Shown here one piece after another: positions 3,376-40,585 of a stretch of DNA of 64,000 nucleotides. The DNA is from an uncultured bacterium (GTDB lineage Bacteria > Patescibacteriota > Microgenomatia > Levybacterales > UBA12049), in assembly GCA_963826535.1 (NCBI GenBank), contig CAWGXL010000011.1, positions 803,521-867,520 of the forward strand, written 5' to 3'. Every line of letters begins with the position of its first letter. The first letter of the stretch is position 1. The notes under the pieces were generated by a model. It did not search any database, was not told where the DNA came from, and saw only the letters and a list, made by a program, of their open reading frames with translations. A program made the position numbers and the translations under genes.

Positions 3376-3957
3376 TCAAAAAGACCTTTTGTATGCTAAG
3401 CGTTTTTTGAGAAGATTTTCTCTATATCCGCCTTCTTTTTGATGTTTTAATTCAACGGCATTTATTTGGCGATCCAGTAGAAATCCACTTCTTTTAAGAA
3501 GATCAATGAGGTAGTTTACTGTCGCTTCTAATCCTTCCCGTCCTTCTAATCCCCCTAATTCTTTGGTGACAGAGGTGGTAGAGGGAATAGGGGGATTAGA
3601 AGGACTAGAATACCAAGAGGGATAACCTTCAAAAATTTGGTGGAGTTTGTAGAGTCGTGGATCATTCTTGCTCCAATAAGATAATCTTTCAATGCGGACT
3701 ATGTCTTCAAAGTCTTCCAAAGCTTCCATGCCTGACGCCTTTGCCACATCATATAGCTTGAGCTTAGAAGAGAGACTTCTTTCGGAAGAACCTTCTACAA
3801 TATTTTGTTTGTGAGATCTTAGGGCTTGTTTTATTTGGTCGCGTTGGCGTGAGTCCTCAAATTTTCTATAATATTTCGGTACAAAATCCCAGCCTAAATC
3901 AAAGGCAATTTGAGCCAGTTTGTAACTGATAAGACTTTTGTAACCAGCTTCTGCCAC
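3376..3957 (-). CDS. Four-helix-bundle protein (23S rRNA IVS / bAvd-like family) with ~90 aa C-terminal extension
   Basis: N-terminal 100 aa follow the pattern YKLA..I......FVPKY...RQ.DQI..A.RS...NIVEG......S.KLKL....A.AS..E...DFEDI, typical of TIGR02436 four-helix-bundle proteins. Confidence 0.45.
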   Translation of the reverse strand: MAEAGYKSLISYKLAQIAFDLGWDFVPKYYRKFEDSRQRDQIKQALRSHKQNIVEGSSERSLSSKLKLYDVAKASGMEALEDFEDIVRIERLSYWSKNDPRLYKLHQIFEGYPSWYSSPSNPPIPSTTSVTKELGGLEGREGLEATVNYLIDLLKRSGFLLDRQINAVELKHQKEGGYRENLLKKRLAYKRSF

Positions 3958-5183: not shown

Positions 5184-5876
5184 TTGCAATTGCAGAAGAG
5201 TGATTATATAATGATTTTAGGAATGAATAAAAATCTTCTTATCGGTATTGTAATTGTTTTGTTGATCCTAATTGGTGGGGGATATATGTTCCTAAACCGT
5301 TCTCAAAATCCTCAACCTTCTACAATTGAAACAACTGAAACTACCCAGGTTACAAATACAGCCGGGGTTGTAGAGAAAAAATCAATTAAGAGTCTTTTAG
5401 CTCTAGGCAGCAATCAAACATGTACTTTTGAAGATAAAGAGACAGGAAGTTCAGGTACGGTTTTTATAGACTCCGGAAAATTTAGAGGGGATTTTTCGTC
5501 AAATGTAAACAATGTTGTATCGAATTCGCATATGATCGCTGACGGTAAGGATGTCTATGTTTGGACGGATAATTCTAAAGAGGGATTTAAAATGTCTGTA
5601 GATTCTATAGAGAAAATTAATGAAGGCGGACCGAAGACTGTTGATATAAATAAAGAGGTTGATTATTCATGTACTCCGCAGGGAGCTGAAGTTTCAAAAT
5701 TTGTCTTACCAACAGACGTAGTGTTCTCTGACTTTAGCAAAATGATTGAGGATGCAGCAAAATTGAAGCAGAATGGCACCAGCAATACTACTCAGAGTCC
5801 ACAATCAAATTGCGGCGTGTGCGATAGTGTTCCGGCAGAATCTCAGGCGCAATGCAGAGAAGCGCTAAGGTGTTAA
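5184..5876 (+). CDS. Hypothetical membrane-anchored / secreted protein with Cys-rich C-terminus
   Basis: N-terminal TM/signal helix (LLIGIVIVLLILIGGGYMF), Thr/Gln-rich linker, C-terminal CGVCDSVPAESQAQCREALRC. Confidence 0.4.
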   Translation: MQLQKSDYIMILGMNKNLLIGIVIVLLILIGGGYMFLNRSQNPQPSTIETTETTQVTNTAGVVEKKSIKSLLALGSNQTCTFEDKETGSSGTVFIDSGKFRGDFSSNVNNVVSNSHMIADGKDVYVWTDNSKEGFKMSVDSIEKINEGGPKTVDINKEVDYSCTPQGAEVSKFVLPTDVVFSDFSKMIEDAAKLKQNGTSNTTQSPQSNCGVCDSVPAESQAQCREALRC

Positions 5877-6639: not shown

Positions 6640-7794
6640 ATGTTAAAAGCGGAACAACGAAAGTGGGTTGAGTCTACCGGGTGGTCGGAACCAATAGGCG
6701 GGAAACTAGGGTCAAGTCCACAGTTGGTATTTGTTTTTGGTGGCAGTTCCATTGTTAGTCTTCCTAAAACTTATGATGATTTAAAAGTCTTATATCCACA
6801 ATCTCATATTTTACTATGTTCAACAGCGGGGGAAATTCTTAATACTACTGTTACTGATAACTCGCTAGTTGCAACAGCAGTGTATTTTGAAAAAACAACT
6901 TTACAATTTAGCCAAACTGATGTTACGCAAGCCGAAGAGAGCTATGACGCGGGAGTCAAGTTGGCGACACAACTAGCTCATGAAGGATTAGTTCATTCTA
7001 TGGTGTTTTCAGATGGTTTACGCGTTAATGGTACTGCTTTAGTTAAAGGCTTGATTGAACACCTGCCGGTTAATGTTTCTGTAACGGGTGGTTTGGTTGG
7101 TGATGGAAGCGACTTCAAGCATACATATGTCGGATTAGATTCTGTGGCTCAGGAAGGAAAGATCATATTAATTGGTTTCTATGGCCAATCTTTAAAAGTG
7201 GGATACGGTTCAAAGGGAGGGTGGGATCCGTTTGGTGTTGAGCGATTAATTACTAAATCGAAAAATAATATACTTTATGAGCTAGATGGGAAACCCGCGC
7301 TGGCTTTATATAAAGAATATTTAGGCGAATTAGCGTCAGGCTTGCCCGGTACCGGCTTGCTTTTTCCTTTAAACTTAAGACTGAGTGATGATACCACAGG
7401 TAAGAATGTGGTGGTGAGAACTCTGCTGGCTATTGATGAGAAAGATCAGAGTATGACTTTTGCCGGAGATATGCCTGAGGGTGCTTTTACAAAACTTATG
7501 AAGGCAAACTTTGAACGGTTAGTTGACGGCGCATCTGAGGCGGCAAGTTTAAGTACTGAATCTATAGGTAGTCATAAATCAGAGTTGGCTCTATTAATCA
7601 GTTGCATTGGCCGTAAATTAGTGTTGAAGGAAAGGATTGAAGAAGAAACCGAATCAGTCCGGTCTTTACTTGGGGATCAAGCAGTAATAACTGGGTTTTA
7701 CTCTTATGGCGAGATATGTCCGACAGCTCCTAGCGAAAAGCAATGCCGTTTACATAATCAAACAATGACAATAACTACTTTCAGAGAAGATTAA
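6640..7794 (+). CDS. FIST domain sensor protein (FIST-N + FIST-C)
   Basis: 384 aa; length and composition typical of FIST proteins; immediately precedes a histidine kinase (1-nt gap). Confidence 0.55.
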   Translation: MLKAEQRKWVESTGWSEPIGGKLGSSPQLVFVFGGSSIVSLPKTYDDLKVLYPQSHILLCSTAGEILNTTVTDNSLVATAVYFEKTTLQFSQTDVTQAEESYDAGVKLATQLAHEGLVHSMVFSDGLRVNGTALVKGLIEHLPVNVSVTGGLVGDGSDFKHTYVGLDSVAQEGKIILIGFYGQSLKVGYGSKGGWDPFGVERLITKSKNNILYELDGKPALALYKEYLGELASGLPGTGLLFPLNLRLSDDTTGKNVVVRTLLAIDEKDQSMTFAGDMPEGAFTKLMKANFERLVDGASEAASLSTESIGSHKSELALLISCIGRKLVLKERIEEETESVRSLLGDQAVITGFYSYGEICPTAPSEKQCRLHNQTMTITTFRED

Positions 7795-32513: not shown

Positions 32514-33671
32514 ATGCGAAGACTTATTATTTTAATTGTTATTCTTGTACTTATTTTAGGTGCAACGAGTGTGGTACAGAGGTATGTTCCTGCTTTGAAT
32601 AATTTAATCCGGGATAATTCAAAGATTGTTATACCTCAGAGAGAGGCTGTAAAAATAGTTTCCGAGGAATCGATAACCATTGGCATTGTCAAGAAAGCGG
32701 GTGAGTCGGTTGTGACTATTTCAGAAGAGCGCGAACCCAGTTCAAATTTAAATCCTTATTTTGATTTCGGTCCTTTTGGTTTTCAGATTCCCGGTCAAGA
32801 AGAACTGCAACCGCAACAACCACAGAGCATTGGTTCAGGATTTGTTATTTCAAAGGAAGGGATGATTGTGACAAATAAGCATGTTGTAAGTGACTTACAA
32901 GTGAAGTATTTTATTATCACAAGTAGTGATAAAAAATATACAGTGCAGAAAATTTACCGTGATCCATTAAATGATGTCGCGCTTATACAAATTGACCTTA
33001 ATGAAAACCCGGGAGCAATTCTTAAGCCCATTGATTTGGGCGACTCTACTGATTTACAGGTTGGTCAATATGTTGCGGCAATTGGTACAGCGCTTGGTGA
33101 ATTCCGTAATACAGTTACAACCGGGATAATTTCAGGTTTGGGGCGGGGGATTACAGCAGGTAGTTTTTATGAAGGATCTGTTGAGCGGCTTGATAATGTT
33201 ATACAAACCGATGCGGCAATCAATCCAGGTAATAGCGGAGGACCACTTTTGAATTCTACAGGTCAGGTGATTGGAGTGAATACAGCGGTTTCGGCTAGCG
33301 GACAGAATATTGGTTTCGCGATTCCTATAAATGTTATTAAGGATTCGCTGAATAATTTCAATCAGACAGGACAATTTAACAGGCCGTATTTAGGTATTGC
33401 ATATAGATTTATTTCCAAAGATATTGCAATATTAAATGATCTGCCTGAGGGAGCGTATGTCCAGAATGTCGTGCAGAGTTCGGCAGCGGATAAAGCCGGT
33501 GTGGAAACAGGAGATATAATTACTAAGATTGATGGGCAACAGATTGATGTGAGTAATCAGCTGTCATCTATTATTGCGAAGAAAAAAGTAGGAGACAGGA
33601 TAGCAATTTCTCTTTTCCGCGATGGAGAAATACAAGATATTCAAGTAGTGCTTGAATCGGTCACGGAATAA
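32514..33671 (+). CDS. HtrA/DegP family serine protease (trypsin-like + PDZ)
   Basis: TNKHVV (His), D in NDVALI, GNSGGPL (Ser), C-terminal PDZ (GDIITKIDGQQI). Confidence 0.85.
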   Translation: MRRLIILIVILVLILGATSVVQRYVPALNNLIRDNSKIVIPQREAVKIVSEESITIGIVKKAGESVVTISEEREPSSNLNPYFDFGPFGFQIPGQEELQPQQPQSIGSGFVISKEGMIVTNKHVVSDLQVKYFIITSSDKKYTVQKIYRDPLNDVALIQIDLNENPGAILKPIDLGDSTDLQVGQYVAAIGTALGEFRNTVTTGIISGLGRGITAGSFYEGSVERLDNVIQTDAAINPGNSGGPLLNSTGQVIGVNTAVSASGQNIGFAIPINVIKDSLNNFNQTGQFNRPYLGIAYRFISKDIAILNDLPEGAYVQNVVQSSAADKAGVETGDIITKIDGQQIDVSNQLSSIIAKKKVGDRIAISLFRDGEIQDIQVVLESVTE

Positions 33672-33737
33672 CAATTATTGATGGGTCTTGCAATTTTAGA
33701 TACTTAATATATAATAATATATAAGAAAGATATATAG

Positions 33738-33761
33738 ATTCCCGCCTTCGCGGGAATGACA
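33738..33761. repeat. 28-bp-family palindromic element, solo copy (ATTCCC-N8-GGGAAT core)
   Basis: attcccgccttcgcgggaatgaca; immediately upstream of the RBS of the 33772 gene. Confidence 0.6.
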
Positions 33762-33771
33762 GGGAAGGAAT

Positions 33772-34512
33772 ATGCCGAGAAAAACTGTAAACAATAATAC
33801 TACTAAAGAATCTAAAGCCGTATCTTCGAGTAAAGCTAAGAACTCAACCAATACTTTTGCAAGATCATCTCAGAAGCAACCGGTAAATAGTCAAGACAGT
33901 GAAAAAGCAACCGGTGGCAGGCGAGCAATAAGGGTTCATAGATCGTCTATTATTGTCGCCCTGGTTATTATTCTTTTGGGCGTGCTTTTGTATTTCGGGC
34001 GCGGATTTATAATCGCCGCGGTTGTGAACGGGCAGCCAATCAGCAGGTTCTCATTAATACAAGAGACAGAGAAAGCAAGCGGAAGACAAGCATTAGCTTC
34101 ATTGATCAGGAATGCATTGGTTGAACAGGAGGCTAGAAAACAAAATGTGACGATTAGTGAAAAGCAAATTAACGATCAAATTAAAACTATAGAAAATAAT
34201 TTATCAAAGCAGGGCCAGAAGATTGATCAGATGTTGGCTTTGGAGGGAATGACCAGGGATGATTTGCGCCGAATAATCCGTCTTGATTTATTAGTTACCA
34301 AACTGATTGAAAAAGATATTAAAATAACCGACAAGCAAGTTAATGATTATATTGAGAAAAATAAAGAAACATTACCCAAAGATAAAAGTGAAGCTCAATT
34401 GAAAAAAGAAGTTGCTGAGCAATTGAAAAAGGAGCAGCTTCCTCAGAAGGCGCAAGCATGGTTCGCGGAGCTTGAAAAAAAGGCAAATATTATGAAGTTT
34501 GTTGATTATTGA
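33772..34512 (+). CDS. SurA N-terminal-domain-like periplasmic chaperone (no PPIase domain recognised)
   Basis: N-terminal basic region + TM anchor, then LIRNALVEQEARKQNVTISEKQINDQIKTI... resembling SurA_N / PrsA N-domain. Confidence 0.45.
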   Translation: MPRKTVNNNTTKESKAVSSSKAKNSTNTFARSSQKQPVNSQDSEKATGGRRAIRVHRSSIIVALVIILLGVLLYFGRGFIIAAVVNGQPISRFSLIQETEKASGRQALASLIRNALVEQEARKQNVTISEKQINDQIKTIENNLSKQGQKIDQMLALEGMTRDDLRRIIRLDLLVTKLIEKDIKITDKQVNDYIEKNKETLPKDKSEAQLKKEVAEQLKKEQLPQKAQAWFAELEKKANIMKFVDY

Positions 34513-34588
34513 TTGAAGATTGAGTTATTTGTAATTTTTCCTCTAAGAATGTATACCCGAATAAAATCCAGTTGCCCTCACTCTTTTG

Positions 34589-34614
34589 TAATTCCCGCGA
34601 ACGCGGGAATCCAG
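34589..34614. repeat. Palindromic element, left copy flanking GIY-YIG gene
   Basis: taattcccgcgaacgcgggaatccag. Confidence 0.65.
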
Positions 34615-34637
34615 TAGAATATAAATAATTTTACCCT

Positions 34638-34922
34638 ATGTATTATATCTATATACTTGCATCAGCGAGAAATGGTACTTTATATATTGGCGTTACGAAT
34701 GACATAGTCCGTAGGGTTTGGGAACATAAAAATAATCTTGTTGAAGGTTTTACCAAAAAATATAGGATTCATACCCTTGTCTATTATGAATCTGTTGAAA
34801 ATAGTATAAGCGCTATTACACGGGAGAAACAACTTAAGAAATGGAATCGGTACTGGAAAATTAAATTAATCGAAGAAAACAATCCTGAATGGAAAGATCT
34901 TTATGATGAAATTATCAAATAA
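34638..34922 (+). CDS. Small stand-alone GIY-YIG nuclease family protein (UPF0213/YhbQ-like)
   Basis: YYIYILASARNGTLYIGVTNDIVRRVWEHK... GIY...YIG motif with Arg and Glu catalytic positions. Confidence 0.8.
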   Translation: MYYIYILASARNGTLYIGVTNDIVRRVWEHKNNLVEGFTKKYRIHTLVYYESVENSISAITREKQLKKWNRYWKIKLIEENNPEWKDLYDEIIK

Positions 34923-34944
34923 GAGGTTTGAATTATTATACCTT

Positions 34945-34972
34945 CTGGATTCCCCTGTCCAGGGGAATGACA
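34945..34972. repeat. Palindromic element, right copy flanking GIY-YIG gene (inverted relative to left copy)
   Basis: ctggattcccctgtccaggggaatgaca = reverse complement of the 39579 copy. Confidence 0.65.
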
Positions 34973-35015
34973 ATCTATTTGCTGCAAGCAGTGAGGAATT
35001 AAACTTTAAAATAGA

Positions 35016-35228
35016 TTAAACATGATGATGCCTATCGGTGTCCCAGGGATCCCGAGGCTTGTCTCCGGGTTCAAAAGGCTTAAGTTTTACTTTCGTGACT
35101 GGTTTAATTGGTGTCATTTCTTGTTGAGTTTTATGAGCGGTAACTGAAGGTAGAATATCTTTCCCGCGAGCCGCCTGACCTCTATCGGTTATGTGTCTAT
35201 CCATACCTGTTCTTCTTCCCGTTTCCAT
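35016..35228 (-). CDS. Hypothetical small protein
   Basis: 70 aa ORF, basic and His-rich C-terminus; weak. Confidence 0.25.
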   Translation of the reverse strand: METGRRTGMDRHITDRGQAARGKDILPSVTAHKTQQEMTPIKPVTKVKLKPFEPGDKPRDPWDTDRHHHV

Positions 35229-35416
35229 AATTGAAGAGAATATATCATAGATACAATCTGATTGTCAAACAATTTTTTATACTGTGATGCTATAGAGCAG
35301 GTTAGAATATATCAGACATCTTATTGCTTTTTATAAGCTCAAAGTGGTTTTTTAATTTGGTCTCTTGACAAAGCTCGGGTTGTTTTGTGTATTATATATA
35401 GAGAGGTGGTGATAGG

Positions 35417-35578
35417 ATGAAAAAAAAGAGAACGGTAAAATCAAATAGAGTTAAAAACGTTAAGAGTTATGCGCTGGGAGGAAGTAAAAAAAAGTTATAT
35501 GGAATAGATCATGATTTTATTTTAATTGTAGGAGGGGCATTTGTGCTGGTTATACTTGGTTTAATGTTTCTTTCTTGA
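35417..35578 (+). CDS. Small basic membrane peptide (53 aa)
   Basis: MKKKRTVKSNRVKNVKSYALGGSKKKLYGIDHDFILIVGGAFVLVILGLMFLS. Preceded by TTGACA-17nt-TATTAT promoter (35367-35397) and GAGAGGTGGTG RBS; below ORF-track cut-off; 3' end overlaps the convergent nuclease gene. Confidence 0.4.
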   Translation: MKKKRTVKSNRVKNVKSYALGGSKKKLYGIDHDFILIVGGAFVLVILGLMFLS

Positions 35579-37094
35579 GTTGAGGTTGAGTCAACCAATT
35601 CGCGGATAGGGTTTCTGTTGAGGTTATTTGATCTGAATTCAGAATCCTGACTTTTTTGTAATTTTGGGGTTGAGAGAGATATTGTTTGATAATTTTATAT
35701 ATATCCAGGTCAAAAGTGTAATCATTGCCCCATTGTTCGATTGCCCCATTGTTAAATAATTCAGCTAATGATTGATTTGATGGGTTATTAATATTTGTAT
35801 CTTCCTGTTCTATTTTTACATTACCTAAATAACACCATTTGTTAATTAAGATATATTCTTTTTTATGAACGTCGCTTTCTTCTATAATTATTTGTCCAGG
35901 AAAAGGCCAAGGTTTTATTTTTGAAGATGCGAATGCGGTTATAAATTTTAGATTGTGAACAATCGGCTTTTCGGTGCCAATACATGCGCCTTTGCATCTT
36001 CCCAGTCTGTTAGCAAAACAGCCATTTTTGGAACGAGAGAGACCGGTTGATTCCAGTCCTAGTAATTTTTCGCAAAGTGAATATTTTTTTACAATATCTG
36101 CAAGAAATGATTTTGCTTGTTTTCGGGATCTAAAAAAACCTAGAAAAGAGTCTAACATTGTAGGATCAATGATAGTGATTGCCTCAAGAAAACATTCCCG
36201 GTATCCATTTTTGTTTAATTTGCTTTTTAGCGCAATTAGTTCATGTTTGACGCGGGATTTTTTATTATATAGTGGCAGAAGTTTTTTTATCAGTTCTGAT
36301 TCCAGAAAAAGTGCTCCGAGTTCTCCTGCTGTGGGAATGGTTTCAATATGTTCAATTTGTTGAGAAATTTTCATCTCAGTCGAAGAGTGGATGTCGGATG
36401 CGAAGTGTGACAGCACGCGGTCTCTGATATTTTTGCTTTTGCCAATGTAAAGAGGGATGCCATTTTCTGAATAAAAAATATAGACTCCAGGCTGTTCAGG
36501 TAAAGTATCAATTTCAGCGTGGGGGATTTTCAAAGGTAGGGAAGGTTTTTTGAGTGCTTTTTTAACGGCATTCTCAACGTGCTCGAGCGGGAAATCCTGG
36601 AGAATTTTATTGTAAAAGCTGACGAGTACTTTCGCATCATCGAGTGCTCGGTGACGTTTAACGCAGGTAAAGCCATGTCGTTCAATAAGGCTATCTAAAT
36701 TGTGATGCAGAAACTGAGGATAAAGAAGGCGTGAGAGACGGACTGTGCAAAAGTGCTTGGAGGAGAAAGAGATGTCACGTCTAAGGAATTCATTTTTCAG
36801 AAAACTATAGTCGAAGCGGACATTGTGGGCAATGAATATGCAGTCATTAAGTATGTCGAGTATGTCGGTTTGGATTTGACGGAATGTCGGTGCTTTTTCC
36901 AGATCTTGCTGTGTGATGCCCGTTAGTTGAGTGATCTCAGGTGCAAAACGCGTCTGCGGGTCGATGAGTGAGTGGAATGATTTTGTGATTTTATTGTCTT
37001 CTACGCGAAGAATACCGATCTCAATAACCCGGTCATAGAGAGAGTGCATTCCGGTTGTTTCGATGTCGACGAAAGCGAGTTTGGATGGCAGCAT
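35550..37094 (-). CDS. DnaQ-like 3'-5' exonuclease (DEDDh) fused to UvrC/Cho-like GIY-YIG nuclease domain
   Basis: Exo I FVDIETTG, Exo II IAHNVRFD, Exo III HRALDDA; then GVYIFYSENGIPLYIGKSKNIRDRV (GIY-YIG). Same architecture as mycobacterial Rv2191-type proteins. Confidence 0.75.
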   Translation of the reverse strand: MLPSKLAFVDIETTGMHSLYDRVIEIGILRVEDNKITKSFHSLIDPQTRFAPEITQLTGITQQDLEKAPTFRQIQTDILDILNDCIFIAHNVRFDYSFLKNEFLRRDISFSSKHFCTVRLSRLLYPQFLHHNLDSLIERHGFTCVKRHRALDDAKVLVSFYNKILQDFPLEHVENAVKKALKKPSLPLKIPHAEIDTLPEQPGVYIFYSENGIPLYIGKSKNIRDRVLSHFASDIHSSTEMKISQQIEHIETIPTAGELGALFLESELIKKLLPLYNKKSRVKHELIALKSKLNKNGYRECFLEAITIIDPTMLDSFLGFFRSRKQAKSFLADIVKKYSLCEKLLGLESTGLSRSKNGCFANRLGRCKGACIGTEKPIVHNLKFITAFASSKIKPWPFPGQIIIEESDVHKKEYILINKWCYLGNVKIEQEDTNINNPSNQSLAELFNNGAIEQWGNDYTFDLDIYKIIKQYLSQPQNYKKVRILNSDQITSTETLSANWLTQPQLKKETLNQV

Positions 37095-37233: not shown

Positions 37234-37584
37234 ATGATCATGAATAAGTTAATTCCGATTAGTAAATTTTATAAAAACGCGAAACAGATTACCCATCTTT
37301 CTCAAACGTCCGTAGTTATAGATGAAAAAGGTAATCCAATAGGCTTTGTTTTCGGAAGAGACGCATTTATATCCGCCTTGGAGCATTTTGATGAAGCTTT
37401 TGAAGAAATGGTAAAAGACCAAAAATTGGCATATAATAATCCGGCGGGAAAATTAATTGACATTATTGAGGAAAAACTTCCTTTAAACCCTAATTTTGTG
37501 AAGGGGCTTAAAAAAACTGTAAAAGAGACAAAAAAGCATGAGTGGATTCCTTTTGAGGAAGTCGTGCGTTCTTTACATGTATAA
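37234..37584 (+). CDS. Putative antitoxin of RelE/ParE pair
   Basis: 116 aa; directly upstream of and overlapping (8 nt) a RelE/ParE toxin gene. Confidence 0.5.
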   Translation: MIMNKLIPISKFYKNAKQITHLSQTSVVIDEKGNPIGFVFGRDAFISALEHFDEAFEEMVKDQKLAYNNPAGKLIDIIEEKLPLNPNFVKGLKKTVKETKKHEWIPFEEVVRSLHV

Positions 37585-37834
37585 TGTTGTATTTACACCT
37601 CACGCAAAAAAGGATTTGATAAAGCTCCCCAAAAATGTTCAAAATAGAATAATCAAAAAAATTAAATTTTTTACAAATAGCGAAAATCCGTTAGCATTTT
37701 CAAAACCATTGATAAATTTGCCTCCTCTTACCCACCGTTTCAGAGTCGGAGATTACAGAGTTGCCTTTTATATTACGGAAAATATCATAACAATTGACCG
37801 AATCGAGCATAGAAAAGATGTCTATTTGAATTAA
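37577..37834 (+). CDS. RelE/ParE family toxin
   Basis: MYNVVFTPHAKKDLIKLPKNVQNRIIKKI...FRVGDYRVAFYITENIITIDRIEHRKDVY - classic RelE/ParE core. Confidence 0.7.
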   Translation: MYNVVFTPHAKKDLIKLPKNVQNRIIKKIKFFTNSENPLAFSKPLINLPPLTHRFRVGDYRVAFYITENIITIDRIEHRKDVYLN

Positions 37835-37836
37835 GC

Positions 37837-39540
37837 ATGGAAAAAATATTTTTTGAAATAACTGTAGTTATATGTATTGCTGCGGCACTAGCTATTGTAT
37901 TCAGGTTTTTTAAACAGTCTGAGATTCTTGCTTATATATTGACCGGGATTATTCTGGGGCCACTTGCATTTGTCAAACTTGATAGCGGGGAAGTGATGCA
38001 TTCTTTGGGACAAATCGGGATTACTTTACTACTATTCATGTTGGGTTTGGAGCTTCGGGTGAGTGAGATCCGGTCGGTTGGGAAAGTGGCTCTAATAACC
38101 GGGACAGGGCAGATAATTTTTACTACCGGCGTTGGTTTTCTGCTGTGTATTGTTTTGGGCTTTTCGTCTTTGACTTCGTTATATATGGCTATTGCATTGA
38201 CATTTTCAAGTACGATTATTATTGTAAAACTTCTTTCAGATAAGAAAGATCTGAATAGCCTTTATGGGAAAATATCAATTGGAATTTTACTCGTTCAAGA
38301 TTTTGTGGCGATTATGGCTCTTATTTTTCTTTCGGGATTTCAGAATGGCGGTGAGTCCGGCCTGCCTGCCGGCAGGCAGGTCTCTCCCCTCAGTTTCGGA
38401 TTTTTAATACTTAAAACAGTTGTGCTTTTTGGAGTGGTTATTCTTTTAAGTAATACGATTTTGCCAAAACTTATTAATAAAATTGCGAGGTCTTCGGAAA
38501 TACTTTTCTTATTCAGTCTGGCATGGGCTTTTGGCATGTCAGCGCTTGTCAGTTCGCCTCTAATTGGATTTTCTATAGAAATAGGAGGATTCTTGGCCGG
38601 GCTTGCGCTGGCTAATTCAATGGTGAATTTTCATATTGTGGCAAAAGTAAAAGCGCTTAGGGATTTTTTCATCACAATCTTTTTTGTTACTTTGGGTATG
38701 AGTCTGGTTTTTGATGATATATCCAGAATTTGGATCCCTGCAGTTATATTGGCACTTTATGTACTTATTGGAAATCCAATTATCATGACGTGTATTTTGG
38801 GTTTTTTGGGATACAGAAAAAGGACATCGTTTCTAGTCGGATTGACAATTGCGCAAATTTCAGAGTTCAGTATGATCTTGGTTTTTATGGGAAGTAAATT
38901 AAATCATGTAAGTGACGAGATTGTATCTATTATTACATTAGCCGGGACAATTACATTTGTATTTTCACCTTATATGATTATGAACGGTAATTTAATTTAT
39001 AAAAAAATGTCTCCATATTTATCCATTTTTGAACGGAAAAAAACGCAGGAGCAAACTATTGAAACAGAAAATTTTAATAATCATGTTATTATGGTCGGAG
39101 CTAATAGAATGGGGGAAAGTATTCTGGATGCATTTATAAAGAATGGAACGGATGTACTAGTTGTAGATTTTGATCCAGATGTGATCTCGCGCTTATCTAA
39201 GAAAAAAGTCCGTAGTCTTTACGGAGACATTGTGGACATTGAGATTCAGGAAAAAATAAATCTTAACAAAGCCCGGCTTGTTGTTTCAACCGTTCCTGAT
39301 GTTGATGATAATTTAATTCTGCTTGAAAGTCTACGGATCCAGAATAAAAAGGCACTGGTTGTGCTTTGCGCTATGGAGAAGGAAGATGCAACGGTTTTGT
39401 ATAAAGCAGGCGCGGATTATGTTGTATTACCGCATTTGGCGGGCGGGAGGCATTTGGCAAAAATATTGGTTGATAAGAATCATCTTGAGATTATTGAGGA
39501 CTATAAAGCCCGAGACCGTTCGGTTCTTCTAACGGGGTAA
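37837..39540 (+). CDS. Monovalent cation:proton antiporter (CPA2) with C-terminal RCK/TrkA-N domain
   Basis: 12-13 TM helices then Rossmann HVIMVGANRMGESILDAF; contains a perfect GC palindrome in-frame at 38361-38380. Confidence 0.8.
   Translation: MEKIFFEITVVICIAAALAIVFRFFKQSEILAYILTGIILGPLAFVKLDSGEVMHSLGQIGITLLLFMLGLELRVSEIRSVGKVALITGTGQIIFTTGVGFLLCIVLGFSSLTSLYMAIALTFSSTIIIVKLLSDKKDLNSLYGKISIGILLVQDFVAIMALIFLSGFQNGGESGLPAGRQVSPLSFGFLILKTVVLFGVVILLSNTILPKLINKIARSSEILFLFSLAWAFGMSALVSSPLIGFSIEIGGFLAGLALANSMVNFHIVAKVKALRDFFITIFFVTLGMSLVFDDISRIWIPAVILALYVLIGNPIIMTCILGFLGYRKRTSFLVGLTIAQISEFSMILVFMGSKLNHVSDEIVSIITLAGTITFVFSPYMIMNGNLIYKKMSPYLSIFERKKTQEQTIETENFNNHVIMVGANRMGESILDAFIKNGTDVLVVDFDPDVISRLSKKKVRSLYGDIVDIEIQEKINLNKARLVVSTVPDVDDNLILLESLRIQNKKALVVLCAMEKEDATVLYKAGADYVVLPHLAGGRHLAKILVDKNHLEIIEDYKARDRSVLLTG
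38361..38380. repeat. Perfect 20-bp GC palindrome inserted in-frame in the antiporter gene
   Basis: cctgcctgccggcaggcagg (encodes ...LPAGRQ...) within a locally GC-rich about 45-bp patch in an AT-rich gene; related gcctgccggcaggc at 58019-58032. Confidence 0.6.
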
Positions 39541-39578
39541 TAAATGGAATAAGTTACTCAAGTTATAAAAAAATGATT

Positions 39579-39606
39579 TGTCATTCCCCTGGACAGGGGA
39601 ATCCAG
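39579..39606. repeat. Palindromic element, left copy of an empty pair
   Basis: tgtcattcccctggacaggggaatccag. Confidence 0.65.
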
Positions 39607-39661
39607 AAGATATAAATATTTCTACATTAAAAAAGTAAATGGAAAAACTTATTTTTACCTA

Positions 39662-39689
39662 CTGGGTTCCCGCGTTCGCGGGAATGACA
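39662..39689. repeat. Palindromic element, right copy of an empty pair
   Basis: ctgggttcccgcgttcgcgggaatgaca; reverse complement of the 34589 copy type; 55-bp AT-rich spacer between the two. Confidence 0.65.
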
Positions 39690-39712
39690 ATAAACTGGGT
39701 AGCACGAGCAAG

Positions 39713-40585
39713 TTATTTCTCTTCGAATGGGTGTTCGTTGGGGATTTCGCCGTCCAGTATATTCGGGAGGTTTTTCCAGGATTTGTTGATGCGGTGGTCG
39801 GTGAGGCGGTCTTGGGGGAAGTTGTAGGTTTTAATTTTTTCTGAGCGCATACCACGGCCTACTTGTGTAGCTCTGAGAGAAGCGATTTGGGTCTGCTGTT
39901 TTTCGAGTTCTATTTCCCAGAGTTTGGCGCGGAGTAATTTCATAGCGATTTCGCGATTTTGTATTTGTGAACGCTCGGCTTGGGCTGTTACAACAAGACC
40001 GCTGGGTTTATGACGGATGCGCACGGCAGTTGAGACTTTGTTTACATTTTGCCCGCCATGGCCTCCGCTACGAAATGCTTCGAACTCAATGTCATCGGGG
40101 TTAATATGTAAATCTATATCTTCAAGTTCAGGGAGAATAGAAACAGTGCTGGTTGAAGTATGAATGCGGCCTTTTTTTTCGGTTGCAGGTGTTCTTTGGA
40201 CTCGATGGACACCTGCTTCAAATTTAAATATATTAAATGCGCCTTTCCCTAATATTTTAATTATGTATTCATCCAGTCTTTCGACTGTGAAGCCTTTTTT
40301 TTGCGCGAAACGGGTGTACATACGCAGGAGTTCTTCCGCCCATAATTTGGCCTCGTCACCGCCGGCTGCGCCTTTGACTTCAAGAATGATATTGCGTTCA
40401 TCGAAATTATCCTGCGCCTTTGTTTGGGAATTTTTTAGACTATCTTCAATCACTTTTTTTTCTTCTTCAAGATTAGTTAGTTCTTGCTGGGCTAAGGTTA
40501 TTAATGCAGGATCGGAAAGTAAGGTTTTTGTTTCCTCGATTTTTTGTTCAAGCTCCTGAAGTTGTATTAATCGGTAGTCGGACAT
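39713..40585 (-). CDS. prfA: Peptide chain release factor 1 (short form)
   Basis: GGQ motif [12 protein letters not shown]; PAT tripeptide ([14 protein letters not shown]) marks RF1 rather than RF2; no frameshift site. Confidence 0.8.

Follow-up and report, generated by a model that had tools for sequence, protein, structure and literature searches.

A small gene for a GIY-YIG nuclease lies here between two inverted copies of a 28-bp palindrome, and a second inverted pair of the same palindrome nearby encloses no gene. This arrangement raises the questions of whether the gene and its repeats form a unit, whether that unit moves, and whether the gene-less pair is a site that it could occupy. 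A sequence-only reading had proposed such a repeat-bounded unit as new and had taken the pair at 39579/39662 as an empty site giving direct evidence for it. We addressed both proposals across the window, that is, the whole 64-kb stretch of DNA that was analyzed (Table 1).

Table 1. Positions of the repeat copies, the nuclease gene, and the composite units within the 64-kb window
Feature	Position	Strand	Description
c1	33734-33761	-	Solitary NTS / CGTC-1 hairpin repeat (TGTCATTCCCGCGAAGGCGGGAATCTAT); interval from htrA-like stop to SurA-like start
Whole NTS-ssn-NTS module (TTGT...ACAA)	34586-34975	+	~390 bp; DNA similarity to two other loci (L001, L003) bounded exactly here
c2	34587-34614	+	Left NTS of ssn module; G-type stem; tag TGTA, not TGTC
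ssn leader	34615-34637	+	TAGAATATAAATAATTTTACCCT; AATATAAATAA core kept in other Patescibacteria-type modules and gonococcus
ssn gene	34638-34922	+	94-aa single-domain GIY-YIG nuclease, SsnA homolog; sole credible ORF between c2 and c3
c3	34945-34972	-	Right NTS of ssn module; lineage-specific C-type stem (CCCCTGGACAGGGG)
Gene-less G/C heterodimer doublet (pair B)	39578-39693	-	~115 bp; between convergent Kef-type antiporter and release-factor genes
c4	39579-39606	+	C-type NTS of pair B
Doublet spacer	39607-39661	.	55 bp, AT-rich; conserved within doublet family
c5	39662-39689	-	G-type NTS (TGTCATTCCCGCGAACGCGGGAACCCAG) of pair B

The motif ATTCCC-N8-GGGAAT, allowing at most one mismatch, occurs exactly five times in the window (chance expectation, 0.16; 0 of 100 shuffles got to five copies), which bears out the earlier count of five 28-bp palindromic copies. 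All five are intergenic. Oriented TGTC...CCAG, they align as TTGTCATTCCC, then a stem interior of one of two kinds, G-type (GCGAACGC) or C-type (CTGGACAG), then GGGAATCCAG. As single-stranded DNA (ssDNA), each copy folds into a hairpin with a stem of 8 bp and a loop of 4 nt (−8.9 kcal/mol for c1), and both pairs are arranged with the TGTC ends outermost and the CCAG ends innermost. The TGTC-type ends described by the sequence-only reading are present in c1, c3, c4, and c5, but not in c2. Likewise, c2 and c3 are in opposite orientation, but they are not the mutual reverse complements that had been claimed, sharing 22 of 28 positions and differing in their stem interiors; the exact reverse complement of c3 is c4 (28/28), and c5 matches c2 at 26/28 positions. 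That c2 and c3 bracket nothing but the 94-aa GIY-YIG gene, in 330 bp, and that c4 and c5 bracket 55 bp were both correct.

Repeats of this build have been described twice. CGTC-1 tagged REPs consist of a tag (CGTC or TGTC), an 8-bp stem that begins with AT, a loop of 4 nt, and a CCA tail; they occur largely as inverted dimers, many of them heterodimers, with spacers of 20 to 100 bp that are often conserved (Di Nocera et al., BMC Genomics 2013, PMC3733652). The family is the dRS3 of Neisseria; it was listed from five phyla, Patescibacteria not included, and in 2013 no dedicated transposase was apparent (PMC3733652). The 28-nt NTS of Neisseria meningitidis (Nm) reads CGTCATTCCCGCGMAVGCGGGAATCYRG (Chenal et al., Nat Commun 2025, PMC11893778), and c1, c2, and c5 differ from this consensus at 2 of 28 positions. 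The published SRM regex matches c1 and c5 exactly. A scan of the 64 kb for the CGTC-1 architecture (tag, 8-bp stem from AT, 4-nt loop, CCA tail) returned only c1, c3, c4, and c5, with 0.1 expected; c2 was absent solely through its TGTA.

Judged by sequence, the 28-bp elements are NTS/SRM sites, alias CGTC-1 REP or dRS3. Like CGTC-1/dRS3, they combine tag, stem, loop, and CCA tail with an intergenic location and inverted (hetero)dimers, and unlike the CGTC-1 repeats of PMC3733652, one dimer here contains a GIY-YIG gene, as in Chenal et al. 2025. Two departures were counted against an Ssn/NTS reading: the C-type stem of c3 and c4 is 6/28 positions off the Nm NTS and fails the SRM regex at one stem position, and c2 fails it at the tag C, having A at a site that governs cleavage. 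Over the whole window, an Rfam scan at gathering thresholds gave 0 matches. We also considered and rejected identity as intrinsic terminators, as no copy combines a hairpin with a T-run: the interval 33600-35600 contains no terminator-like site (GC-rich hairpin plus T-run), and the sole such site in 39300-39900, at 39510-39523, falls within the antiporter gene and at none of the elements.

The window protein matches the Pfam GIY-YIG family alone (PF01541; E = 2.6e-14, residues 1 to 74) and terminates directly after the catalytic core, with no DNA-binding extension. A tblastn search of PLSDB found N. gonorrhoeae NZ_CP119140.1 (E = 8e-30, 61% identity), the PLSDB matches being two gonococcal chromosomes filed as plasmids, and pairwise BLASTP against the gonococcal ORF gave 55/90 identities (61%) with no gaps (E = 3e-41). 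Nm SsnA, of the Ssn family (cd10448), is a 94-aa single-domain GIY-YIG nuclease with catalytic Y6, Y17, and E64, the last a metal-binding glutamate (PMC11893778). We compared the window protein with Nm SsnA through the gonococcal ORF, whose length of 94 aa, Y6/Y17/E64 (the residues published for Nm), and location within a cluster of NTS copies led us to take it as the SsnA ortholog; the homology criterion of the published study is E < 1e-10. Residues Y5/Y16/E63 of the window protein align with the catalytic Y6/Y17/E64, and an alignment of 30 homologs shows no variation at Y5, Y16, R26, H30, or E63. A sequence search of the PDB recovered no Ssn structure, only marginal UPF0213 matches (1ywl and 1zg2, E = 0.015 to 0.018) and spurious sums over WD40 repeats. 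A weak tblastn match at 3613-3840 (E = 0.019) was rejected as a second ssn gene.

The likeness to Neisseria SsnA/NTS therefore extends to both partners: a 94-aa single-domain GIY-YIG protein with Y/Y/E at equivalent positions and 61% identity to the gonococcal ortholog, and a repeat, (C/T)GTCATTCCCGCGnAnGCGGGAATCCAG, composed of tag, 8-bp stem, 4-nt loop, and a C 3' of the stem, which lies on both gene flanks with more copies nearby. Unlike in Neisseria, the host genome is ~0.9 Mb, AT-rich, and Patescibacteria-type, and there are 5 copies in 64 kb, compared with 16 in the 3.3 kb surrounding gonococcal ssnA. The pair here is cleanly inverted with tags outward, unlike that of the gonococcus, where a truncated copy lies upstream and a direct one downstream; the lack of a simple inverted arrangement in gonococcal ssnA was also counted against an Ssn/NTS reading. 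One module end in the window carries a lineage-specific stem variant (CCCCTGGACAGGGG).

Is the proximity of gene and repeat a property of this locus or of the family? A homolog scan with one genome per GTDB species yielded >486 relatives, and we tested the association on the best 80 of these, which are 60 to 76% identical to the window protein. These best 80 come from Levyibacteriota and other Patescibacteria, Omnitrophota, Chloroflexota, Nitrospirota, Planctomycetota, Acidobacteriota, Bacteroidota, Zixibacteria, and all proteobacterial classes. Using the detector GTCATTCC-N10-GGAATC, we found correctly oriented elements on both sides of the gene at 32/80 loci (40%) and on one side at 21/80, so that 66% have an element on at least one flank. 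These values agree with the 42% of ssnA homologs with SRM on both sides and the 71% with SRM nearby that were published across phyla (PMC11893778). The remaining 27/80 loci have no element recognizable by the detector used, an observation likewise counted against an Ssn/NTS reading.

Among these best 80 loci, the elements usually lie 14 to 34 bp before the ATG and 3 to 29 bp after the stop; in the window, 23 bp separate the end of c2 from the ATG, and 22 bp separate the stop from the start of c3. Element density is 3.9/kb within 150 bp of ssn versus 0.083/kb beyond 500 bp, a ~45-fold enrichment. The 209 distinct elements of other genomes have the consensus (C/T)GTCATTCCCGCG(A/C)A(A/G)GCGGGAATCCA(G/T). 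The association of ssn with NTS across phyla is real and fixed in orientation and spacing. The repeat-bounded unit of GIY-YIG gene and palindrome that had been proposed is thus reproduced on 80 loci, and it had already been published (PMC11893778).

The conservation of the repeat concerns its fold as well as its letters. We selected 54 distinct elements by the unpaired anchors GTC-N20-CCA, independently of pairing, and all 8 stem pairs were at least 91% Watson-Crick. Compensatory double substitutions occur at pairs 6/21, 9/18, and 4/23, and the unpaired tag and tail are also conserved. The hairpin, not sequence alone, is under selection.

Taken together, the locus is very probably an Ssn/NTS system, consisting of an SsnA-family GIY-YIG protein and its cognate NTS/SRM sites. 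As such, it is another instance of a pairing already described in 2025, and the novelty that had been claimed for the gene-repeat unit does not hold (PMC11893778, PMC3733652). What the present analysis adds to Chenal et al. 2025 is the sharp borders of the module in unrelated contexts, its absence from syntenic sites, and a dispersed family of doublets.

The gene-less pair proved to be a two-hairpin form of the repeat and no unoccupied target. The sequence-only reading had placed it in the same left/right configuration as the module, and it is instead the module's G/C heterodimer flipped, with the G-type-then-C-type order of the module on the minus strand. As ssDNA, pair B would form one long foldback (z = −4.8). 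Among 227 elements from 85 sources, the C-type stem is confined to this window, and the likeness of c3 and c4 runs on past CCAG for 11 of 14 bases (P ~9e-5), so that module and doublet have a recent common origin. We dropped the simplest form of this relationship, a deletion of the ORF from the module, after aligning the spacer with the leader plus trailer gave a score of 9 versus 7.4 ± 2.0 for shuffled sequence; in the permutation test, 488/2000 shuffles were at least as good (p ~0.24).

A metagenome scan with the C-type 25-mer identified 9 contigs, 0 of which carry ssn homologs. The C/G heterodimer is present on 5 of the 9, in 4 cases with a ~62-bp spacer, and pair B aligns over its full length at 82 to 85% with the doublets of those four contigs. 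Pair B is therefore not a vacant site: its locus is not that of the module, its orientation is flipped, and its conserved spacer is common to ssn-less doublets elsewhere, so the direct evidence expected from an empty site falls away. It is a member of a dispersed non-coding dimer family, the counterpart of REPINs, NIME units, and HH dimers, and dimers of this form were on record for the repeat family (PMC3733652). Like NIMEs, it has a short AT-rich spacer between inverted ATTCCC-N8-GGGAAT copies, and unlike NIMEs, which are long many-unit mosaics bounded by dRS3, it is isolated, though of a conserved-spacer family.

We infer the nuclease biochemistry at this locus by homology with the Neisseria enzyme. 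Nm SsnA binds one strand of the NTS, solely as ssDNA, and cuts a few nucleotides upstream; it does not act on dsDNA, RNA, or the complementary strand (PMC11893778). The window protein would, by this homology, bind its NTS only as folded ssDNA, in the form of the 8-bp/4-nt hairpin, for which replication, repair, or DNA uptake are candidate occasions. It may recognize the (C/T)GTC tag on the 5' side of the stem together with the C on its 3' side and would nick a few nucleotides 5' of the tag, on the tag strand only. Because the tags point outward, cuts are predicted just outside each end of both module and doublet, on opposite strands.

Cleavage by Nm SsnA is governed by the three nucleotides that precede the palindrome (PMC11893778), so cutting is expected to be weaker at the left end of the module, where the c2 tag has A. 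Altering the palindrome sequence with the hairpin kept abolishes Nm SsnA activity (PMC11893778); since sequence is needed as well as the hairpin, recognition of c3 and c4 by the window enzyme is not guaranteed. The single nuclease gene may serve the non-coding doublet in trans, much as RAYTs do their REPINs. For the system as a whole, candidate roles drawn from the literature are restriction of incoming NTS-bearing ssDNA, as in Neisseria, or maintenance and spread of the repeat.

Does the unit move? A possible, still tentative answer is that the module is an active selfish element of ~360 to 390 bp, mobilized through its single-stranded hairpin ends by the GIY-YIG nuclease, which would excise or copy NTS-ssn-NTS; the doublets would be non-autonomous, MITE/REPIN-like derivatives, and horizontal transfer would carry the element from phylum to phylum, Patescibacteria included. 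Chenal et al. raised the idea, likening NTS-ssnA-NTS to an insertion sequence and to RAYT/REP, with movement not demonstrated there (PMC11893778). The borders of the module favor it. The two closest protein relatives (87 to 88% identity) sit in quite different neighborhoods yet have the whole ~385-bp module in common, and the DNA similarity (~83%) begins at TTGTC and ends at GACAA, giving sharp borders in three unrelated contexts. Further support comes from an alphaproteobacterial contig with two ~90% identical copies 30 kb apart, bounded by a longer variant hairpin. Two-sided modules in 29 other genomes span 353 to 414 bp, and neither a target-site duplication nor a conserved flank was found at these 29; absence of target duplication is also a feature of IS200/IS605.

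Synteny points in the same direction. Four relatives share the gene order S6-SSB-S18-x-CtpB-HtrA-SurA-like-small TM protein-(Cho-like)-Kef-RF-L31, with SurA-like proteins 59 to 76% identical to that of the window. At the genus-to-family distance of these comparisons, among which there is no filled/empty allele pair, the ~10 kb of each relative is without ssn, doublet, or any NTS copy, and the Kef-RF gap is 6 to 28 bp versus 172 bp in the window. Module, doublet, and solitary copy were gained in the window's lineage. Also consistent with a selfish element are the 60 to 76% protein identity over many phyla among the best 80 of >486 relatives, the spread of the conserved-spacer doublet family over several contigs, and the finding that tags outward is the commonest orientation of gene-less short pairs in 85 sources (33 versus 17, 13, and 13).

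Other observations weigh against an active selfish element. The nearest relatives, at ~60 to 76% identity in the neighboring protein, are beyond strain level. No covalent intermediate forms when GIY-YIG nucleases hydrolyze DNA, so host functions would have to join the strands, and cuts predicted on opposite strands differ from the one-strand chemistry of IS200/IS605. The tag at the module's left end is mutated, and the likeness of the doublet spacer to the untranslated ends of the module is not significant. Viral contigs gave partial N-terminal GIY-YIG matches only and 0 copies of an Ssn homolog, which leaves a phage vector unsupported. The data fit insertion of module, doublet, and solitary copy, plus horizontal spread of the gene. 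We infer mobility of the ssn gene from this pattern; GIY-YIG hydrolase chemistry alone does not explain integration.

The closest analogy to a selfish Ssn element is RAYT/REPIN. Both have one small enzyme gene bracketed by inverted tagged hairpins and dispersed gene-less inverted doublets without target duplication, and in both the hairpin is recognized as ssDNA, here presumably so by homology. The likeness is one of layout, and we rejected membership: there is no HUH-Y1 transposase inside the module, and the tag is TGTC. The enzymes, a hydrolytic GIY-YIG nuclease versus an HUH/Y1 transposase, are unrelated in fold and chemistry, and the tags are CGTC (TGTC in the window) versus GTAG. Unlike RAYTs, which are mostly inherited vertically, ssn has strong cross-phylum similarity.

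Quite improbable, in our view, is a homing-type invasion, in which the doublet would be a vacant target and a free-standing GIY-YIG homing ORF would have inserted between its hairpins. GIY-YIG homing endonucleases exist, and module and doublet do agree in their two end types and in the relative order of these, differing essentially by ORF plus spacer. However, the two units lie at different loci in opposite orientation and so form no allelic filled/empty pair, and the doublet has its own conserved 55- to 62-bp spacer without detectable kinship to the ORF flanks. Identity as a GIY-YIG homing endonuclease was rejected: the protein ends after its catalytic core, and the NCBIfam intron-endonuclease model TIGR01453 matches residues 4 to 36 only, at 18.5 bits, below its cutoff of 56.05. 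The ~90-residue GIY-YIG core is like that of UPF0213/YhbQ-type proteins and of I-TevI-type homing endonucleases, from which the window protein differs in its marginal sequence matches, lack of a DNA-binding extension, and genomic setting. Homing also needs dsDNA cutting, and the characterized relative does not cut dsDNA (PMC11893778).

That the copies are generic structural repeats (ordinary REP, terminator, or mRNA-stabilizing hairpins coincidentally placed around a GIY-YIG gene) is scarcely credible: the intergenic location of the copies, the position of pair B between convergent genes and of c3 after the ssn stop, and the action that REP-type hairpins can have on transcripts (discussed in PMC3733652 and generally known) would suit it, but we reject it because of the ~45-fold enrichment beside ssn homologs at fixed orientation and spacing in 80 genomes, the selection on the hairpin, the lack of any terminator-like copy or Rfam match, the conservation of an unpaired tag and tail that a purely structural hairpin does not need, and the published experimental evidence that the homologous protein binds the repeat (PMC11893778). 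A generic REP or terminator palindrome with no enrichment around GIY-YIG genes was what the sequence-only reading had named as its own refutation, and the enrichment found is the opposite.

The repeat family has been catalogued since 2000-2013, and its pairing with a nuclease was described in 2025. To this, the locus adds an Ssn/NTS system with a nearly Neisseria-identical recognition sequence in a minimal Patescibacteria-type genome, where copies are few and syntenic relatives allow their gains to be placed. Whether the unit and its gene-less doublets move can be asked more cleanly in a compact genome with few copies than in Neisseria, which has hundreds, and the same holds for how the C-type stem co-evolves with its nuclease. 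If mobility is true, the long-orphaned CGTC REP superfamily would gain a mobilizing enzyme, and a GIY-YIG-based counterpart of RAYT/REPIN would be defined.

Two copies of ssn, the small GIY-YIG nuclease gene, lie 30 kb apart in one alphaproteobacterial MAG (contig JAFARO010000004.1; loci L016 and L036), and a variant, longer form of the hairpin, GTCATCCCCGGCGAG...GGGGACCCAGG, flanks each of them. Our detector for NTS, the 28-bp hairpin repeat that flanks ssn in the window, missed this variant at both loci, and therefore some of the 27 ssn homolog loci classed as unflanked may have divergent motifs. Some ssn homologs also carry C-terminal tails, e.g., GFPPARE or GCPPARA (P0086, P0108, P0017, and P0013; alignment A5). 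These tails come from translation that reads through into the NTS hairpin downstream, suggesting either loss of the stop codon or gene calling into the repeat. Upstream of the gene, the core of the ssn leader, AATATAAATAAT, is common to Patescibacteria-type modules and Neisseria gonorrhoeae across phylum distance and may represent a −10-like promoter element that travels with the gene. Separately, PLSDB records NZ_CP119140.1 and NZ_CP119142.1 are nearly unannotated N. gonorrhoeae chromosomes of 2.17 Mb, and their filing as plasmids is a database artefact.

Directly to the right of the ssn module in the window are ∼370 bp of extra DNA (34976 to 35350), including a small ORF, that are absent from syntenic relatives. 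In those genomes, the SurA-like gene is followed within ∼100 bp by the promoter of a small TM-protein gene. This stretch could represent another, unrelated insertion or a piece of a larger acquired block. A second GIY-YIG gene, which is Cho-like and unrelated to ssn, lies 600 bp from ssn; it keeps the same position in relatives, and no NTS copies flank it. Beyond it is a ParE-type toxin gene with a putative antitoxin ORF upstream, a pair that is missing from the syntenic relative L090, where the Cho-like and Kef-type antiporter genes are adjacent. Across all 64 kb of the window (1 to 64000), no Rfam family (tRNA, rRNA, riboswitch, etc.) scored at or above its gathering threshold, and GC skew was positive almost throughout.

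Coordinates of features in the window and on compared contigs (L numbers)
Feature	Position	Strand	Remarks
ssn leader	window 34615-34637; L108:1455-1488		alignment A8
ORF, 70 aa	35016-35228	-	within the extra DNA; no Pfam match
Cho-like gene	35550-37094	-	DnaQ-like exonuclease fused to GIY-YIG/UvrC-middle/Cho-C region
Putative antitoxin ORF	37234-37584		upstream of the toxin
ParE-type toxin	37538-37834		between Cho-like gene and Kef-type antiporter
C/G doublets inside outer inverted repeat	L104:903-1072; L106:818-987; L099:2451-2587		alignment A7
Second tagged hairpin repeat	L003 about 660-700; L088 about 6900-7010; L090 about 5750-5790		

Several metagenomic C/G doublets, which are NTS pairs without a gene between them, are enclosed by an outer inverted repeat, ACTCATGTTACGCA ... 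TGCGTAACGTGAGT, which is reminiscent of the Halothiobacillus CGTC-1 dimers reported inside a 41-bp palindrome. The nesting could reflect either a palindromic target that is preferred or a composite element of larger size. A further hairpin repeat with a tag, GTCATTTCGA(G/A)CG...GAAATCC, is present on related Patescibacteria-type contigs without the ATTCCC type and is arranged as an inverted dimer on L088. This repeat may constitute a separate SRM class served by a nuclease of its own.
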